Shown: in pieces, positions 43,670 through 54,059 of the stretch | Layout: each line of letters opens with the position of its first letter | How positions within the stretch are numbered: the stretch's first letter is position 1 | DNA from: Nitrospiria bacterium | GTDB lineage: Bacteria; Nitrospirota; Nitrospiria; JACQBZ01 | Assembly (NCBI GenBank): GCA_035498035.1 | Contig: DATKAN010000043.1 | Location: 23,639 to 87,638, forward strand | DNA: 64,000 nt | Direction: 5' to 3' | The notes under the pieces: model-generated | The model's input: only the letters and a program-made list of their open reading frames with translations | What the model was told of the DNA's origin: nothing | Databases searched by the model: none | Made by a program: the position numbers and the translations under genes

Positions 43670-44590
43670 TCATCTCCCCGGCGTAAAATCGACGGGAGGG
43701 TGGAGCAAACGAACCAGTTCTTCCAGACCGTCCATGACCCTCGGCCCCGGTCGGTTCAAAAGGTCCCGATCGACCTTGTAGATTTTCCCGTCCCGCACGG
43801 CGGACAGAGAAGACCAACGGCTCCAGTCCCGCTTCTCCTGATCGGAAAGGGAGCGATCCGCGTCCATGGCCAGAACAATCACCTGCGGGTCCTGTTGAAT
43901 GACGTATTCCATCGACAGCATGGGATAGGCCTTGTCTAACCCCCCGGCGATGTTGATTCCACCCGCTTCATGAATCAGGTCCGCGAGGTAACTCCTCTTT
44001 CCGACCGAGATCAGGGGTTCCTTATCCACCACATAAAGAAGACGGACCGGCGGAAACGGTTCCACGGCCTGTCGAATCCGATTCAGCCGTTCACGAAGTT
44101 GTCGCACTTTTTCAACGGCGGTCTCCTTGGCCCCGGCGATCCTTCCGAAAACAAGAATGGTCCCGAAGATCTTTTCCAACGAAGAGGGGTCGACGGCGAA
44201 GTACGGGATCTGAAAACGCTCAAACCGGGTCAAGTTATCTTCCTGATACAATCCCGCGACGCCGACCACCAGATCCGCACGTAAGGCCAGGATGCTTTCG
44301 ATATTGGCATTCAATCCGCCCACCCGCGTTTTAGACAAGGCTTCCGGCGGATAGTTGCAGTAATCGGTGACGCCGACGACCCGGTCGCCGAGACCGAGCG
44401 CGAAGAGGATCTCGGTCAGCCCGGGCGCCAGAGAAACGATCCTCTCCGGAGGTTTCAGGAACCGAACCGAGCGACCGAGATCATCCGTCAAGGTGAGCGG
44501 CTCGGCGTTTGCGGACATGGGGGTGAGGAGTACGGCGTGAGAAGTGACGAGAAAAAGAGGAGCAATAAATAGAATGGGCGAACGGCTCAA
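43670..44590 (-). CDS. btuF: periplasmic cobalamin/siderophore-binding protein (BtuF-like, class III SBP)
   Basis: Mature domain motifs (IVSLAPGLTEILFALGL, VVGVTDYCNYPPEA). Likely TTG start near 44590 giving signal peptide SRSPILFIAPLFLVTSHAVLLTPMSANA; the ORF is open to 44815 but that region looks non-coding. Confidence 0.7.
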   Translation of the reverse strand: MSRSPILFIAPLFLVTSHAVLLTPMSANAEPLTLTDDLGRSVRFLKPPERIVSLAPGLTEILFALGLGDRVVGVTDYCNYPPEALSKTRVGGLNANIESILALRADLVVGVAGLYQEDNLTRFERFQIPYFAVDPSSLEKIFGTILVFGRIAGAKETAVEKVRQLRERLNRIRQAVEPFPPVRLLYVVDKEPLISVGKRSYLADLIHEAGGINIAGGLDKAYPMLSMEYVIQQDPQVIVLAMDADRSLSDQEKRDWSRWSSLSAVRDGKIYKVDRDLLNRPGPRVMDGLEELVRLLHPPVDFTPGR

Positions 44591-44864
44591 AAAGCTCCAG
44601 ATGCCCCCTCCGGGGACTTCCACATTTCGTATTACTGGAAGGGGGCCGCGAGGCCGCAGGGACCGAGGAGCCCGGAGCGTAAGGCAATAGGTACGTGAGG
44701 ACACCGAGGGACGGAGAACAAAGCAGATGGACTTTTTCAGCAGTTTGCAAGAGGGCATAAAAAATCCCCAAAGGCAAAACACCCAGCCCTTGAGGATTGC
44801 ACCCTGCTTCTTCACCCTAAGGTGAGCCGATCCGCCTTCTTCAATCGAAACGGAATAGGCCGCG

Positions 44865-45053: not shown

Positions 45054-45704
45054 CTATAGTAATCCCCGCCGCCGCAGATATTCCCGGTCGATTTTTTGGG
45101 GGGCGCCTTCCGGTCCGGGTTCCAGAAGAAGGCGCTCCAAATATTTCCCGATCAAATCGCACTCCAGATTGACCCCGCTCCCGACCCCTTTCAGGCCGAG
45201 AGATGTCGCCTTTGCGGTGTGGGGGATGATCGCCACCTGAATATCCTTGTCGGTCACATGATTGATGGTCAGGCTGACTCCGTCCACGGCGATCGATCCC
45301 TTCTTCACGCAGTACCGCGACAGCTCTTTTGGGATTTCGATCGTGAGGAAAAGCGCCTCGTCCTCCTGGCGGCGGTCCCTGATCCGGCCTATGCCGTCGA
45401 TATGTCCGCTGACCAGGTGGCCGCCCAATCGGCTGTTCACCCGCACGGCCCGCTCGAGATTTACGGCATCGCCCACTTTCAAGGAACCCAGATTCGTGAC
45501 GGTCAGGGTCTCGGACGACACGTCCGCGGTGAAATCTCCGCCCGTTCTCCCTATCACGGTAAGACAGACCCCGTTCACCGTGATGCTGTCCCCCAAGGCC
45601 AATTCCTCCAAGACGGTCTTGGCCAGAACGGTCAAGCGTCCGGATTTCTTATCGCGGTGAAATCCTTGGACGACACCCATCTCTTCGATGATTCCCGTGA
45701 ACAT
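45054..45704 (-). CDS. ribE: riboflavin synthase (alpha subunit)
   Basis: MFTGIIEEMG N-terminus and duplicated lumazine-binding repeats (SITVNGVCLTV and SIAVDGVSLTI). Confidence 0.85.
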   Translation of the reverse strand: MFTGIIEEMGVVQGFHRDKKSGRLTVLAKTVLEELALGDSITVNGVCLTVIGRTGGDFTADVSSETLTVTNLGSLKVGDAVNLERAVRVNSRLGGHLVSGHIDGIGRIRDRRQEDEALFLTIEIPKELSRYCVKKGSIAVDGVSLTINHVTDKDIQVAIIPHTAKATSLGLKGVGSGVNLECDLIGKYLERLLLEPGPEGAPQKIDREYLRRRGLL

Positions 45705-45805
45705 AAAAACATCATACCAGAGGCCGTTTCAGACTGTCAAAACCGGATGAACCCGAAATGGGCATTCGATTGGAGGAGAGCGGGGATGAGACGGGGCGGA
45801 ACGTC

Positions 45806-47104
45806 CTACTTGATGATTCCAATTTTATTTTTACCCGTACGCTTCGCATGATAAAGGGCGTCGTCCACCGCTTTGAGAATTTTGAGAATGTCTTTTTCTC
45901 CTTTCGTACTGCTGGCCACACCGAGACTGATCGTCAACTTCCCTCCGGGCTGCTTCTCCCGATCCGCAAACGGGTAGTATTCCACCGCGGTTCTTAATCC
46001 CTCGGCAATTTTGACGGCCGCGTCAAAGTTGGTTTCGGGAAGAATCACCATAAATTCCTCTCCGCCGATCCGGCAGACGAAGTCCACGCTCCGGACGTGC
46101 TTTTTGAAAATGACCGCCAAACTTCTCAACAGATCGTCGCCTTTCAAGTGACCCTGGGTGTCATTGTAGGTCTTAAAATCATCAACATCGATAAGAATGA
46201 GGGAGAGCGGATGGCCGAACCTTTCGTTACGTTTGATCTCTTCCCTCAACTTCTCCATAAAGAAGCGGCGGTTGTACAGGCCGGTCAACGAATCCGTAAT
46301 CGCCAGTTGATGGGTCAACTCGATCTTATTATCGAGCTCCTTCTTCATGCCGGAGATGGCCTCCACCATCTGGTTGAATTCACCGGCCAGACTCTCTATT
46401 TCGTCGTTGGTCTTTATCGTCAATCGATAATCCAGATTGCCCTGACCGACGGTCTTCGCGCCCCGATGGAGATCCAGGATCGGCCAAATCACAAACCGGG
46501 TGAGGTAAAAAGAGAGCAGGGCGAAGAAAATAACAGTCGCTCCCACGATTCCGGAAAAGACCCACGTGACATTCTGGCTTTTGGATTGCGCCTCATGGAC
46601 CATCCGGATCATTTCTTTTTCGGAAAGGACTCGAAATTCGTCGGCCTTCTTGATCATGTCTCCGGAGAAAATAGTGGCCTCGTGGAGCAGCTTGGCTCCC
46701 TTGGGATTCCCGACGGGCCGATCGATAAACAGAATCGTGACCAGCATTTCACTCAAGCGGAGGACGTCATGGTTGAGGTCTGTGGCCAACGCTTCCCACC
46801 GCTGATCCCCATGGTAGCCCTGGAGGTCTTTGGTGATCTGGAAGATCTCGTTGCTCAGCTGGTCGAACCGGTCCCGTTCATCGACATTCCCCGTGATCAG
46901 GTAGTTGTTGGCCGGATCCAGGAACATATGAAGACGAAGTTGCAGACGATCCGACAACTCGAACTTATGGGCCTCCTCCTGAACCGCACCGGTCGTTATG
47001 TTAATTTCCCGCACCTCCAGCAATACGATCCCCAGGGCCATGAAAAAAATAAGGCTGAGGCCGAGAAAGGAGCCGAGGACCTTTGTTCGAATGCCGAATT
47101 TCAT
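45806..47104 (-). CDS. diguanylate cyclase (sensor domain, HAMP, GGDEF)
   Basis: TM-flanked periplasmic sensor region, HAMP, and GGDEF domain with active-site RIGGEEF. ATG near 47104 overlaps the stop of the upstream PstS-like gene (ATGA). Confidence 0.8.
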   Translation of the reverse strand: MKFGIRTKVLGSFLGLSLIFFMALGIVLLEVREINITTGAVQEEAHKFELSDRLQLRLHMFLDPANNYLITGNVDERDRFDQLSNEIFQITKDLQGYHGDQRWEALATDLNHDVLRLSEMLVTILFIDRPVGNPKGAKLLHEATIFSGDMIKKADEFRVLSEKEMIRMVHEAQSKSQNVTWVFSGIVGATVIFFALLSFYLTRFVIWPILDLHRGAKTVGQGNLDYRLTIKTNDEIESLAGEFNQMVEAISGMKKELDNKIELTHQLAITDSLTGLYNRRFFMEKLREEIKRNERFGHPLSLILIDVDDFKTYNDTQGHLKGDDLLRSLAVIFKKHVRSVDFVCRIGGEEFMVILPETNFDAAVKIAEGLRTAVEYYPFADREKQPGGKLTISLGVASSTKGEKDILKILKAVDDALYHAKRTGKNKIGIIK

Positions 47105-47598
47105 TCTTGATCGTCCTGCATGATATATATAATCTGAAATTCTTCGTTGTCTCGGAGATATTTTTTCGGCAGATACCCGATTCCCCACGGGTCTTCTTGA
47201 ACGGCGTTCAGAATTTGCGCGGGATCTCCCTTGACCAAGGGGGGCTTTAATCCATCCTGGAATAATTTCTTGACCCAATACAATTTATAGTCCTTGGAGG
47301 ACATTCCGATGACATTGGACAGAAAGACATCTTTCACCGGTCCCTCCGGATATTGGATCGGGCGGACGGGCATTCCGCCCACAAAACGAATTTCCCCAAG
47401 ATAAATCCCACGGATTTCGGTTTTGGAAAGACGGCTCAAGGGACTGTCCTTGTTTACGACCACCGCAATCTGTTCCGCATAGGCGGTCAAAGCACTGCAC
47501 AGCAGGCCACCGAGGATCAACAGGCTCAATATTAGGCCCCGGATTTTCACAACGATGGGATCGTTTTTTAAAAACTGAATGCCCACTGCGCCTCCCAC
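47101..47598 (-). CDS. small periplasmic phosphate/phosphonate-binding-like (PstS-like PBP) domain protein
   Basis: Signal peptide plus ~120-aa domain (IAVVVNKDSPLSRLSKTEIRGIYLGEI...WGIGYL) resembling the N-lobe of phosphate-binding proteins. Start uncertain (GTG at 47598 or ~47550). Confidence 0.5.
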   Translation of the reverse strand: MGGAVGIQFLKNDPIVVKIRGLILSLLILGGLLCSALTAYAEQIAVVVNKDSPLSRLSKTEIRGIYLGEIRFVGGMPVRPIQYPEGPVKDVFLSNVIGMSSKDYKLYWVKKLFQDGLKPPLVKGDPAQILNAVQEDPWGIGYLPKKYLRDNEEFQIIYIMQDDQE

Positions 47599-48782
47599 AC
47601 ATGAAAAGTCTCGCTCCCGACTTTTCGATCCAGCCGATATTGAAGCTTCAGGGCGCTCCTTAATTCGTCTATATCGTATCGCACACCCCCGATCATTTGA
47701 TGACGAGAGGTATTATTCACAAGCTCCATAAAATAGGGATCGGTCGGATCGACTTTCAAATTTTCGAAACGCGCGTACGGCGTGATGTCGCGGGCGACTT
47801 TATATCCCACCTGAATGTAGTAGGCATCGGCTTGATGGCCCGGGTTCAACATCCGATAATACTCTGAAATAAATTCCACCTTGTCATAAATATAGGAAAG
47901 ATCGCCCCCGAAGATTTTCTCATTAATGTCTCCATTAAAATCGGTACCGACCTTGTCCGAAGTTCCAAATACTCCGAGAGTCAACCCCGGCAGTCGGAAG
48001 GGCTCAATTGACAGGCGCAATGCGACCTGTTTCGAATTATTGTTATCTGCGGTCACATTCGGCACCAGCGTATGGGTGGTTGAATCGATCCGATGACCGT
48101 TTCCGATATCCAACATATACATCCATCGATATTCCGGACGGTGTTGAGATCCGGAAAATTCAACTCCAACGGTATGAACGGGGAGGACCCCTCCGTCGTC
48201 TTCAAATGCCAAGAAAAACGGACGGTCAACCGTAAGAAATAGCAGCTTTCCATGGTGATAGGTGTTATTCCAGTAACCCAAGGCCGTATGCTCCCGACCA
48301 GCCCTAATGGTCAGAAGATCGTTAATCGTATACCCGACCCATAGTCTTTCCATTTCAACATCGCCCTCGCCGGCCTCCTGATCGAAGTCAATGTCAAATT
48401 CGGCCAGAAAGGTCAGGCGCGGCCCGATATTGACCGTGCTGTACAAATCCAACGGACCCAGGGAAAAGGACGGGTGGTTGGCCGTCCGGTCTTTTGTAAA
48501 AAAATTAACGTCGCCATACGCCCCGAGATTGATCCCGAATTTCGGGCGTGTGTTCTCCATGGAAGCCTTGTCTTCTAGAGCCTGTATTCGTTGGCGTAGT
48601 TGGTTTATTTCCTCCTGTTTCCGATCGCCGTTGGAGGATTGCCTTTGGGTGTTGATTTGGGGCTGGCTTTGGTCTTCAGCCTTGGAGGGGGTTCCATGGA
48701 AAATCCCAAGAATGACCAAACCAATCAGAAATGATTTATTTCTAATGAGATTGAGTATCTTATCCAAACGGTTATTATTCAC
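47568..48782 (-). CDS. outer-membrane beta-barrel porin with N-terminal coiled-coil
   Basis: Signal peptide, coiled-coil segment (EEINQLRQRIQALEDK), alternating amphipathic beta-strand pattern, C-terminal ...WAFSF with terminal Phe. Confidence 0.5.
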   Translation of the reverse strand: MNNNRLDKILNLIRNKSFLIGLVILGIFHGTPSKAEDQSQPQINTQRQSSNGDRKQEEINQLRQRIQALEDKASMENTRPKFGINLGAYGDVNFFTKDRTANHPSFSLGPLDLYSTVNIGPRLTFLAEFDIDFDQEAGEGDVEMERLWVGYTINDLLTIRAGREHTALGYWNNTYHHGKLLFLTVDRPFFLAFEDDGGVLPVHTVGVEFSGSQHRPEYRWMYMLDIGNGHRIDSTTHTLVPNVTADNNNSKQVALRLSIEPFRLPGLTLGVFGTSDKVGTDFNGDINEKIFGGDLSYIYDKVEFISEYYRMLNPGHQADAYYIQVGYKVARDITPYARFENLKVDPTDPYFMELVNNTSRHQMIGGVRYDIDELRSALKLQYRLDRKVGSETFHVWEAQWAFSF

Positions 48783-48980
48783 CCCGGTTCCTCCGTCATG
48801 ATACTGTTGATGAAAAACCAGTTTAACCCATTGATCCCATTAAAATAAGTATAGCAGATGAACAAAAATGGCCTGGGTGGAAGGAAATGACTTCCTGAGT
48901 GCCTTCAAGAACCGTAACCTATGGTAAGTATTGAATGCGGGACCTGGACCCTGTTAAAATCCAGGCGTGGAGGGGGTCCC

Positions 48981-50111
48981 ATGATCTATGATACGATCAT
49001 CATAGGTACCGGTCCGGCCGGCTCCGCAGCAGCGTTTGAATTGGCCCGCAGGGGCTGCCGCGTGCTCGCCCTGGAGAAGAAGCGCCATCCCCGCTACAAG
49101 GTCTGCGGCGGGGGACTTTCTGTACGGCTCGATAATCTGCTCGGCCGACATTACCATACCGTCATAGAGAAGACCGTCACGCGGATGACAATCACCTGCG
49201 GCGGCGCAGCGTCCTTTGAAGTTTCATTTGATGCGCCGCTGGCGTATATGAGCATGCGGAGCCGACTCGACGCCCATTTAATCCGACAGGCACAGACAGC
49301 GGGATGCGACCTTCGCGAGGACGAAGCGGCCACCGGATTCGAGACCTTGAGAAATTCGGTGGTGGTTAGAACCCCGCTCGGAGAATACGAAGCCCTTACC
49401 GTCATCGGAGCGGATGGAGCGCCCAGCCGGGTGGCGAAGACGCTTTTCCCGATGAATGCCCTTCCTTTCGGCATCGCGCTGGAAGGCGAAGCGGCCGCGT
49501 CGGCCGGTGGGTCCTGGTCCGATGACGGATTGCTCATCGATGTCGGCATCATCCGGGGAGGGTATGCCTGGATCTTTCCCAAGTCGGAGCATCTTTCAAG
49601 CGGCGTGGCCACTTTCCGTCGGGAACGGCAGGATCTCCGTCTTCTTTACGGTCAATGGGTGCAGGGCCAACCCAGGCTTCCATCTCCGGACCGGCAGCAG
49701 ATCGTCGGCCACCTCATCCCGCGCTTCTCTCCCAAAGCCGGATCCTTGGCGGGAAACCGCGCCCTCCTGATCGGCGACGCGGCCGGTCTGGTGGACCCGT
49801 TGCTGGGAGAGGGAATCTATTATGGGGTCTGGAGCGGCCGCTTGGCGGCCGATGCGGTCGCAGGCTTCTTGAAGGGAAAGACGCCGCTGGCCCGCTATGA
49901 AGAGAGGGTCCGAAACGAAATCCATCCCGAACTCCGGGTCGCTTCCAGAATTGCCGGGGTCGTTTATCGTTTGCCCCGTTTCTTTTTCAATTTAACGGCC
50001 CGGCATCCCGAATGGCTGAAAGGGTACGGAAAGGTTCTCCAGGGCCGATTGACCTATCAAGATCTTTGGAGACGAGGGCTGGATCCAAGACGCTGGTTCC
50101 CCGTCGCATAA
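48981..50111 (+). CDS. FAD-dependent oxidoreductase, geranylgeranyl reductase family
   Basis: N-terminal DTIIIGTGPAGSAAAFELARRG FAD-binding motif and GG-reductase-like core; ATG at 48981 with GGAGGGGG SD. Confidence 0.7.
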   Translation: MIYDTIIIGTGPAGSAAAFELARRGCRVLALEKKRHPRYKVCGGGLSVRLDNLLGRHYHTVIEKTVTRMTITCGGAASFEVSFDAPLAYMSMRSRLDAHLIRQAQTAGCDLREDEAATGFETLRNSVVVRTPLGEYEALTVIGADGAPSRVAKTLFPMNALPFGIALEGEAAASAGGSWSDDGLLIDVGIIRGGYAWIFPKSEHLSSGVATFRRERQDLRLLYGQWVQGQPRLPSPDRQQIVGHLIPRFSPKAGSLAGNRALLIGDAAGLVDPLLGEGIYYGVWSGRLAADAVAGFLKGKTPLARYEERVRNEIHPELRVASRIAGVVYRLPRFFFNLTARHPEWLKGYGKVLQGRLTYQDLWRRGLDPRRWFPVA

Positions 50112-52059: not shown

Positions 52060-52950
52060 CTACGGTTTGAGAAATTCGCGAATCCCCTCTTCAAAATCCT
52101 GCAGTTCCAGGCCGAAATCATGAACGGCATCGGACGGATCACAAACGTTATCCTCCTGAATCATGATCAACTGCTCTCTCGTAATGGGCGGATTGGGCAA
52201 CAGCCATTCCGAGATCAGCGCGCCGGGCTTGACCAAGGGCACGGGAATATGAACGGAGGCCTTTTTTTTATCGAGAACTCGGGCGATGATTTGATAGATC
52301 TGATTATAGGTCAGGCGGCGAGGACCCCCGAGCTCGTAGATCTTTCGATAGCTCAGCGGATTCCCGACGGCCAGCGCAAAACAGGAGGCCACATTTCGGA
52401 CGCTGACCGGCTGAATCCGGGACTCTCCCCGACCGATGACCGGGACGACGGGAGCGGACAGGATGACGCGGGCGAGGAGGTTGATAAATTGATCTCCGGG
52501 TCCGAAAATCGCCGACGGTCGAAAAATCGTCCAGTCGAGGCCGCTCTGGGTCACCGCTTGCTCGGCCCGATACTTGGTTTGATGGTAACGGGCCGGGGCG
52601 TTCGGACGGCTGCCCAACGCGCTCATATGAATGTACCGACGGATCCCGGCCTCCGCCGTCGCCGCGAGAAGATCCTCCGTCCCTTGAACATGAATCCGTT
52701 CGAAGGTCGATCGCCCCTTCTCGAGGATGATCCCCACGAGATGGACCACGGCCTGGCATTCTTTCAGACCGGCCTTCACGGTGCTCGGATCGGTGAGATC
52801 CCCCGGATGGAGTTCGATCGCCGGCGGAAGACATCGCTTCGCCCGCTCGGCATCCCGGACGAGACAGCGGACCTTGTGTCCGACCCCGTGAAGCTGGCGG
52901 ACGACCTCCCGCCCGACGAAGCCCGTGCCGCCGGTCACGAAGATCCTCAT
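52060..52950 (-). CDS. NAD(P)-dependent epimerase/dehydratase-family protein (NmrA/NDUFA9-like)
   Basis: N-terminal Rossmann motif IFVTGGTGFVGREVV and SDR-extended fold; overlaps the ribD stop. Confidence 0.7.
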   Translation of the reverse strand: MRIFVTGGTGFVGREVVRQLHGVGHKVRCLVRDAERAKRCLPPAIELHPGDLTDPSTVKAGLKECQAVVHLVGIILEKGRSTFERIHVQGTEDLLAATAEAGIRRYIHMSALGSRPNAPARYHQTKYRAEQAVTQSGLDWTIFRPSAIFGPGDQFINLLARVILSAPVVPVIGRGESRIQPVSVRNVASCFALAVGNPLSYRKIYELGGPRRLTYNQIYQIIARVLDKKKASVHIPVPLVKPGALISEWLLPNPPITREQLIMIQEDNVCDPSDAVHDFGLELQDFEEGIREFLKP

Positions 52951-54059
52951 AGATACCCCTCCAGCATGAAATCATCGCCGACCCGTTTCAACGCAAGATC
53001 ACGGATCGGAATGCCTTCGCCCGGTTCACCGCCCACCGTTCCGTCAATAACGGGCACGGCATCCGCCCGACCGATGATCTTGGGAGCGACGAACCATACA
53101 AGCTTGTCCACGATGCCGGACCGAAAGACCGAAGCGTTCAACTCGCCGCCTCCTTCGACCAAAACGCTGGCGACCCCCATGTCGCCGAGCCGGCTCATCA
53201 GGTCCGGGAGGCTGACCCGGCCGGCATGATCCTTGATGACCCAGACCGTCGCCCCGGCTTGCTCGAGGGCCCGTATCTTGCCGGGATGCGCGCGACGCGT
53301 CGTCGCGATGATCGTCTTGGCCCTGGATTTCTGCGTCAATAGACGAGCCGTGTGAGGAATCTTCAATGTGCTGTCGACAACGACCCGATGCGCGTCCCGG
53401 CCTTTCATGGTTGAAAGTCGTGTGGTCAGCCGGGGATCATCCGTCAACACGGTCTGGATCCCAAGCAGGATGGCGTCCGAGCGGTCCCGGAGGCGATGGG
53501 CCTCCAGTCTAGCCTGCTCACCCGTAATCCAAGTTGTCGAGCCTCTTGAGGTTGATATTTTCCCATCAAGACTCATCGCGGTCTTTGAGATCACGAACGG
53601 CCTGCCGGTCGTCACGTACTTGACATAGACCTCGTTGAGCCGGAGCGCTTCCCGCTTAAAAACCTCTTGGGAAACTTCGACACCGGAACGACGAAGAAGT
53701 GCGATTCCCTTCCCGTTCACGCGCGGATTGGGATCCCGCATCGCCACCACGATGCGTCGGATCCGGCTCTTGATAATGAGGGGGGCGCACGGCGGGGTGC
53801 GTTTGTCGAGATGACAACAGGGCTCGAGGTTAAGGTAAAGCGTGGCGCCTTTGGCCCGGCGGCCGGCCCTTTTCAAGGCCACGGCCTCGGCGTGGGGTCC
53901 GCCCGCCCGACGGTGATACCCTTCGGCGATGATCCGGCCGGATTTGACCACGACGGCACCGACCATCGGATTCGGGCTCGTCCGGCCCCGTCCCCTTTCG
54001 GCCAGCTCCAACGCCCGCCGGATGTAGACTTCGTCCGTAGTATCGGAATTTTTTGACAT
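52947..54059 (-). CDS. ribD: bifunctional diaminohydroxyphosphoribosylaminopyrimidine deaminase / 5-amino-6-(5-phosphoribosylamino)uracil reductase
   Basis: CMP/dCMP deaminase zinc motifs (HAE...PCCH...C) and C-terminal RibD reductase domain. Confidence 0.85.
   Translation of the reverse strand: MSKNSDTTDEVYIRRALELAERGRGRTSPNPMVGAVVVKSGRIIAEGYHRRAGGPHAEAVALKRAGRRAKGATLYLNLEPCCHLDKRTPPCAPLIIKSRIRRIVVAMRDPNPRVNGKGIALLRRSGVEVSQEVFKREALRLNEVYVKYVTTGRPFVISKTAMSLDGKISTSRGSTTWITGEQARLEAHRLRDRSDAILLGIQTVLTDDPRLTTRLSTMKGRDAHRVVVDSTLKIPHTARLLTQKSRAKTIIATTRRAHPGKIRALEQAGATVWVIKDHAGRVSLPDLMSRLGDMGVASVLVEGGGELNASVFRSGIVDKLVWFVAPKIIGRADAVPVIDGTVGGEPGEGIPIRDLALKRVGDDFMLEGYL

Follow-up and report, generated by a model that had tools for sequence, protein, structure and literature searches.

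A porin, a stand-alone PstS-type lobe and a HAMP-GGDEF cyclase as a candidate sensory cassette in Nitrospiria, with relatives across phyla

Chemoreceptors, kinases and GGDEF/EAL proteins can all respond to periplasmic binding proteins, through diverse sensor domains, as in the solute-binding-protein-dependent receptor systems NspS-MbaA, ScrB-ScrC (GGDEF-EAL), PstS-CtpL (chemoreceptor), AioX-AioS and ArrX-ArrS (kinases), the binding proteins of which are all full two-lobe proteins of 28-63 kDa (PMC8050422). A locus that invites comparison with these systems is located on a 64,000-nucleotide stretch from the metagenome-assembled genome of a Nitrospiria bacterium (assembly GCA_035498035.1, contig DATKAN010000043.1, positions 23,639 to 87,638; this whole stretch is called the window in the following), where three minus-strand open reading frames (ORFs) occupy positions 48782..45806 in the order porin-like gene, gene for a secreted single-lobe PstS-like protein (a half-size periplasmic binding protein or "half-PBP", here the half-lobe) and gene for an inner-membrane diguanylate cyclase. 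Functionally, this cassette is nearest to the binding-protein-dependent receptors NspS-MbaA, ScrB-ScrC, PstS-CtpL and AioX-AioS, with which it shares, in the window as in distant lineages, a binding-protein gene adjoining the receptor gene. On the other hand, the half-lobe consists of one lobe only, of about 14 kDa, and lacks the canonical ligand residues, and the known receptor systems are not known to have a dedicated porin gene in the same operon. The genes and their junctions are as follows:

47568..48782, minus strand: porin-like gene, 404 amino acids (aa), GTG start behind GGAGG
47568..47586, minus strand: overlap of 19 nucleotides (nt) between the porin 3' end and the half-lobe start, with the porin stop codon (47570-47568) inside the half-lobe ORF and the half-lobe GTG at 47586
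47101..47586, minus strand: gene for the secreted single-lobe PstS-like protein, 161 aa, mature part from 47475, 124 aa
47101..47104, minus strand: ATGA stop/start overlap between half-lobe gene and cyclase gene, read directly off the sequence
45806..47104, minus strand: gene for the inner-membrane diguanylate cyclase, ATG start, 432 aa

The initial annotation of this locus had described a porin, a small secreted protein and a membrane cyclase, with translational coupling through ATGA at 47101-47104; all three genes were found in their places, and the coupling was confirmed from the sequence. It had further envisaged that an oxyanion passes through the porin into the periplasm, where the small protein binds it and signals to the cyclase. 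Relays of porin, binding protein and sensor exist in chitoporin/CBP/ChiS of Vibrio and OprB/GltB/GtrS of Pseudomonas. These resemble the envisaged relay in the succession of a specific channel, periplasmic binding and control of a sensor, but their binding proteins have the full size and supply ATP-binding cassette (ABC) transporters as well, whereas the cassette has no transporter, and their components share with those of the cassette no homology closer than membership of the broad porin and binding-protein superfamilies. The binding-protein/sensor pairs CBP-ChiS and GltB-GtrS are included in a review of such systems (PMC8050422).

The trio of the window is read here as a conserved, self-contained sensory cassette composed of a dedicated porin of the trimeric type, a stand-alone PstS-type lobe and an inner-membrane HAMP transducer, in which the porin would admit a signal and the half-lobe would serve as a periplasmic co-receptor for the HAMP-GGDEF sensor; the chances of this reading are judged to be about even. 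The evidence that carries it is gene context. Outside the window's own clade, 67 of 69 assessable loci have a homologous porin gene next to that of the half-lobe, and this pairing spans Nitrospirota, Beta- and Gammaproteobacteria, Campylobacterota and Verrucomicrobiota. An iterated porin hidden Markov model (HMM) ties all upstream ORFs of the loci to the porin of the window as one family. Usually a HAMP transducer adjoins too, with six outputs, namely GGDEF, GGDEF-EAL, chemoreceptor, histidine kinase, class III cyclase and HD-GYP; we know of no solute-binding-protein-dependent receptor system with six interchangeable outputs. For example, a second Nitrospirae locus inside a che cluster combines barrel and half-lobe with a HAMP-chemoreceptor (methyl-accepting chemotaxis protein, MCP), an Alteromonas locus a chemoreceptor (MCP) with a Porin_4 porin and half-lobe, a Thauera locus a HAMP-PAS-GGDEF-EAL protein with a Porin_4 porin and half-lobe, and a Marinobacter locus a HAMP-histidine kinase with barrel and half-lobe. 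According to RefSeq annotation, chemoreceptor, porin and half-lobe lie together on a P. aeruginosa plasmid, barrel, half-lobe and an EAL protein in Burkholderia, and barrel, half-lobe and chemoreceptor in Ideonella and Massilia. As the genes flanking the cassette vary from locus to locus, the cassette is self-contained.

The close packing of the genes recurs as well. A genome scan with one subfamily recovered 61 loci in Sulfurimonas, Sulfuricurvum, Gammaproteobacteria and Opitutales, in nearly all of which a porin ORF of 327-364 aa ends at the half-lobe start and a sensor ORF of 500-590 aa overlaps the half-lobe stop by about 11 nt (some 55 loci). The downstream sensors of these loci possess weak dCache-like N-termini and combine HAMP with a class III nucleotide cyclase (about 20) or with HD-GYP (about 34). 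Head-to-tail overlaps of ~0-20 nt are also present in those distant loci that were checked against gene calls or annotation. The recurrence of porin, half-lobe and sensor across phyla is strong evidence for a functional module, and the proposal of the initial annotation that the three genes work together is supported by the tight coupling and this cross-phylum recurrence.

With respect to the half-lobe, three start codons can be considered, GTG 47598, which gives the longest ORF and the 165 aa of the initial annotation, GTG 47586 (161 aa) and GTG 47550. The start used by database annotators (P0001, 99-100% identical) is GTG 47586, with GGAGG at 47595-47591, 4 nt ahead, and the size is given here as 161 aa accordingly. 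The signal peptide, which ends in AYA ahead of EQ, is contained in all three forms. Lipoprotein identity was considered and rejected, as there is no lipobox and Cys is unconserved in the orthologues.

Single-sequence searches place the half-lobe at the margin of the phosphate-binding proteins: it scores 21.4 bits against TIGR02136 (cut-off 206.6; E 1.2e-4), covering profile positions 121-227 of 295, and has no match in Pfam, including PBP_like_2, the family that had been expected, which is matched by 23 of 80 half-lobe relatives at E<=0.01. A profile of these 80 diverse relatives aligns with PstS structures at E 1.4e-9 over PstS residues about 77-183. AlphaFold2 with a 105-sequence alignment predicts a compact, confident fold (predicted local distance difference test, pLDDT, 94.9), which supersedes a model from an 18-sequence alignment of close relatives (pLDDT 66). 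The fold is that of a PstS lobe and is closest to phosphate-binding proteins, so that the resemblance to PstS noticed at the outset is upheld by both profile and model. The predicted structure indicates that the half-lobe is a complete single PstS-type lobe and not a two-lobe binding protein.

What the half-lobe does not possess is the two-lobe, hinged (Venus-flytrap) architecture of about 250-350 aa of PstS-type proteins, nor their phosphate site. Lobe I with all its PstS ligands is absent from the 124 mature residues. In the HMM alignments, the PstS segment S-R-E-D-G-S-G-T-R-D-A-F (4q8r/4gd5), which contains the lobe-II phosphate ligands, aligns with I-Q-Y-P-E-G-P-V-K-D-V-F of the half-lobe, and among 80 and 105 relatives the ligand columns are occupied by Y/Q/L, P/A/E, I/V/L and K/R, while R, S, G and T are unconserved. 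Invariant in the family are instead W104, F88, P116 and an IGY motif, and W104 lies in a helix for which PstS offers no equivalent in the alignment (profile positions 90-110 versus PstS 146-154). No pstCAB-type genes are present near the cassette of the window or in any distant locus inspected, and neither pst nor pho genes occur in the window neighbourhood of the cassette. By score, architecture, ligand residues and gene context, the half-lobe is outside the PstS family.

These findings bear directly on the model of the initial annotation, by which an oxyanion (phosphate/phosphonate) enters via a phosphate-type porin and binds to the half-lobe as it would to PstS, the half-lobe then signalling to the cyclase. 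Such a model can draw on the fold, which is nearest to phosphate-binding proteins, on the partial TIGR02136 match, on a Lys/Arg conserved at a helix N-terminus in the column of PstS Thr141 (56 of 80 and 87 of 105 sequences), on weak Porin_O_P matches in 5 of 25 porin relatives and on the precedent of PstS-CtpL (PMC8050422). It is nevertheless very improbable, with no lobe I, the lobe-II Arg and Ser-Gly-Thr replaced family-wide, a TIGR02136 score far below the cut-off, no Porin_O_P match for the porin of the window and no pst/pho genes nearby. Phosphate or phosphonate specificity by way of a PstS-type site is given up here, as the anion-binding residues are missing, the very circumstance that the initial annotation had named as speaking against it. 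An oxyanion ligand bound in some non-PstS way remains conceivable, to which the location of several loci near sulfur-compound genes may be added. In Thauera, metNIQ-like and cysTWA-like ABC transporter genes lie next to the cassette (L011:5569-10450), a gene for a 3-(methylthio)propionyl-CoA ligase is its neighbour on the P. aeruginosa plasmid (L075:6639-8276), and many cassette carriers are sulfur oxidisers; the sulfur-compound genes beside the cassettes are a weak hint to the ligand.

The half-lobe is a member of a large family. In an exhaustive profile search, 3784 cluster representatives passed E<=1e-3, of which 437 also passed E<=1e-10; with few exceptions they are 130-175 aa long, and a signal peptide is present throughout. 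There is no dedicated model for this family in Pfam/NCBIfam, where the PstS models match partially and below threshold, and the RefSeq product names are "phosphate ABC transporter substrate-binding protein" or "hypothetical", the former of which misleads, given that neither a transporter nor a phosphate site exists. Neither the family nor the cassette is described in the full-text literature searched, the coverage of which excludes most subscription journals. It is hardly credible that the three genes are mere neighbours and the small ORF a functionless, decayed pstS fragment. While the lack of a Pfam match for the half-lobe of the window would agree with decay, a secreted family of 130-175 aa is kept across phyla with invariant W104, F88, P116 and IGY, the predicted fold is compact and confident, and the gene order recurs with overlapping reading frames. 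A pstS pseudogene fragment was rejected on the grounds of the conserved family and the confident predicted fold.

Tandem two-lobe versions of the half-lobe occur in several lineages, with diverged halves in P0058, P0086, P0090, P0154 and P0167 and nearly identical halves in P0024, which suggests that the lobes act in pairs. In addition, P0245 is a half-lobe fused to a TonB C-terminal domain, and P0035 a 517-aa porin/half-lobe fusion that may be a frameshift artefact. A bolder version of the co-receptor reading is possible, and is put forward tentatively: the half-lobe would be a "split Venus flytrap" co-receptor, the binding site of which forms with a second copy, the periplasmic face of the porin or the sensor domain, and porin and half-lobe together would constitute a portable input device plugged into six transducer classes in at least four phyla.

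The porin of the window starts with a hydrophobic N-terminal segment (residues 9-27) within a signal peptide ending in SKA ahead of ED (48678-48782), followed by a low-complexity stretch and a short coiled-coil, QEEINQLRQRIQALEDK (residues 56-72, 48567-48617). The rest is barrel-like and ends in WAFSF, the terminal Phe being invariant across 25 cassette-porin relatives; signal peptide and C-terminal aromatic residue, as expected of outer-membrane barrels, are thus both present. In the Pfam scan the porin reaches 25.3 bits against Porin_4, with a curated cut-off of 27 bits. The Porin O/P or OprB membership considered initially was not recovered, as Porin_O_P (PF07396) gives no match at E<=1 and the OprB families are likewise unmatched. 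Among the 25 cassette porins, at E<=0.01, 6 match Porin_4 (best 4.6e-10), 10 BBP2 and 5 Porin_O_P, mostly weakly. The best solved match of the porin family profile (A10) is the 16-strand barrel of VpOmpM1 (8BYS; E 3.6e-6), and Porin_4 and the OmpM barrel appear by these comparisons to be the nearest relatives of the window porin.

VpOmpM1 of Veillonella parvula (8BYM/8BYS) is a diffusion porin that forms trimers of 16-strand barrels and carries a coiled-coil stalk at its N-terminus (PMC10628300). The N-terminal coiled-coil segment of the window porin and of a close relative (L008) recalls this stalk. However, the window porin has no S-layer-homology (SLH) domain, the similarity is weak, and the coiled-coil segment is missing from most, more distant cassette porins.

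In the cyclase, two hydrophobic segments (about residues 8-31 and 178-203) flank a periplasmic region of 145 aa, which together with the HAMP domain agrees with the topology proposed at first. The signature elements are:

46355-46501, minus strand: HAMP domain, Pfam 45 bits
45824-46303, minus strand: GGDEF domain, PF00990 153.6 bits versus cut-off 23.8, TIGR00254 174 bits
46082-46093, minus strand: I-site RSVD (RxxD), residues 338-341, at canonical spacing, five residues ahead of GGEEF
46052-46066, minus strand: active-site motif GGEEF, residues 347-351

Judged by these motifs, the protein looks like an active GGDEF diguanylate cyclase with an I-site. Its periplasmic domain has no Pfam family and no PDB match; among its relatives, individual sequences reach CHASE3 and 4HB_MCP_1, at no better than E 0.02-0.1.

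In its composition the cassette recalls the YfiBNR (TpbB) operon of Pseudomonas and E. coli, which likewise unites a HAMP-GGDEF cyclase with a small regulator in the periplasm and a protein of the outer membrane; YfiB is a Pal-like lipoprotein and YfiR a DUF4154 protein. Nevertheless, porin and half-lobe are not homologous to YfiB and YfiR, and the cyclase shares only the HAMP-GGDEF part with YfiN/DgcN, scoring 135.5 bits against the DgcN/YfiN equivalog (NF007423; cut-off 325) over residues 152-421 only, with the periplasmic domain uncovered. YfiR homology of the half-lobe was rejected, with no sequence match and no top structural match. The cassette is not YfiBNR. A partner switch of the YfiBNR kind could nonetheless be imagined, in which the half-lobe fixes the cyclase in one state and, upon envelope perturbation, is captured by the outer-membrane protein, with no small-molecule ligand. 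The common operon logic (outer-membrane protein, small periplasmic protein, HAMP-GGDEF), the partial match of the cyclase to DgcN/YfiN and the constant pairing of porin and half-lobe, which suggests protein-protein contact, are in line with this alternative. It is considered improbable, as the outer-membrane partner is a porin-type barrel and not a Pal-like lipoprotein, the DgcN score stays under the cut-off without reaching the periplasmic domain, and the fold of the half-lobe is that of a ligand-binding lobe.

Returning to the co-receptor reading, the course of signalling would be as follows. A small signal molecule, not bound in the PstS manner, would enter through the outer-membrane porin and be captured by the half-lobe, probably in dimeric form or with the porin or the sensor's periplasmic domain as the opposing surface, since one lobe cannot close on a ligand alone. 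The half-lobe, in its loaded or unloaded form, would shift the conformation of the periplasmic domain of the cyclase, and HAMP would pass the change to the GGDEF dimer, altering the synthesis of cyclic di-GMP (c-di-GMP).

The sensors of other loci show how inputs and outputs are combined. Outputs have been swapped on conserved inputs, as the N-terminal input classes cross output types: a class III cyclase (L014:5392-7128) and an HD-GYP protein (L015:5392-6897) share 64% identity over the first 235 residues, and the input regions of a GGDEF-EAL protein (L011:1362-3806) and a histidine kinase (L012:2234-3826) 26% (E 3.5e-13). The chemoreceptor input regions form a third class. The periplasmic domain of the window cyclase matches none of the other input classes, and its comparison with the chemoreceptor class gave no profile similarity (hhalign probability 0.3).

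Several observations weigh against the half-lobe as a co-receptor of the sensor. In Nitrospiria the entire neighbourhood is syntenic, and conservation within this group therefore adds little; the 61 loci of the genome scan represent one subfamily branch and are a biased, not independent, sample. The pair of porin and half-lobe accompanies at least four apparently unrelated periplasmic input classes, a poor fit to a universal direct docking partner. A sensor is not obligatory to the pair either, as there are sensor-less pairs in the order half-lobe then porin in L077 (Alteromonas mediterranea plasmid), L080 (Pseudoalteromonas xiamenensis) and L081 (Vibrio sp. THAF191d), as well as one metagenomic locus with half-lobe and chemoreceptor and no porin. 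Finally, the usual closing motion is not possible for a lone lobe, and the canonical ligand residues are gone.

Some of these observations give weight to an alternative in which porin and half-lobe are the core device, with the half-lobe as channel subunit, gate or receiver, while the sensor reads the solute itself and the half-lobe is silent to the cyclase. Porin pairing (67/69) is more constant than sensor pairing, sensor-less pairs are found on Alteromonas, Pseudoalteromonas and Vibrio replicons, the input domains of the sensors belong to several unrelated classes, and the TonB fusion (P0245) together with upstream TonB genes hints at an action on the periplasmic face of the barrel. The TonB genes in question are located in two Sulfuricurvum loci (L027:3018-3947; L035:3242-3937), where the gene immediately ahead of the cassette porin, in the same orientation, encodes a TonB_C protein; this link to TonB is independent of the fusion. 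This alternative is considered rather unlikely in view of the ATGA coupling to the cyclase in the window, the ~11-nt overlap with the sensor gene in some 55 loci and the half-lobe/chemoreceptor locus that has no porin.

With respect to expression, two further features adjoin the cassette upstream:

48783..48920, no strand: divergent intergenic region of 138 bp, presumed promoter region of the three-gene unit
48921..50111, plus strand: gene for an oxidoreductase dependent on flavin adenine dinucleotide (FAD), divergent from the porin gene, upstream neighbour

The porin, half-lobe and cyclase genes look like one transcription unit, because the upstream gene is divergent and ribE, downstream of the cyclase gene, has a sigma-70-like site of its own at 45740..45711. 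A consensus scan of the minus strand of 48783..48920 gave no sigma-70-like promoter for the three-gene unit, and a search of the operon and its surroundings against Rfam gave neither a riboswitch nor any other element. The GC content is 0.45-0.53 across the three genes versus 0.57-0.63 on both flanks (window 45500-49000), which may reflect an old horizontal acquisition or the composition of membrane and secreted proteins.

The cassette is located between two riboflavin genes, ribE (45054-45704) and ribD (52947-54059), which lie about 7 kb apart and also enclose genes for a major facilitator superfamily (MFS) transporter, an epimerase and the FAD oxidoreductase; an Rfam scan gave no flavin mononucleotide (FMN) riboswitch upstream of ribE. 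Downstream of ribE, a FecCD/ABC/TonB uptake cluster includes a Peripla_BP_2 protein, the 381-aa ORF of which (43670-44815) is over-extended at the 5' end, the gene call from the same genome giving 282 aa. On the Alteromonas mediterranea plasmid (L077), the porin/half-lobe pair adjoins a type IV CRISPR csf1-3 cluster.

Signalling via periplasmic binding proteins is, to our knowledge, restricted to few systems, each of which employs a two-lobe protein of full size. The cassette presents a half-size relative that comes with a porin of its own and accompanies hundreds of sensors, with six types of output, in environmental lineages and in others of clinical relevance (P. aeruginosa plasmid, Burkholderia, Vibrio), and as several cassette carriers are culturable, the question is directly testable. 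If porin and half-lobe indeed form a portable input device, they would define a new accessory-sensor family and show where many orphan chemoreceptors and c-di-GMP enzymes get their input, while the half-lobe would represent a natural stand-alone binding-protein lobe with a bearing on the origin of two-lobe proteins.

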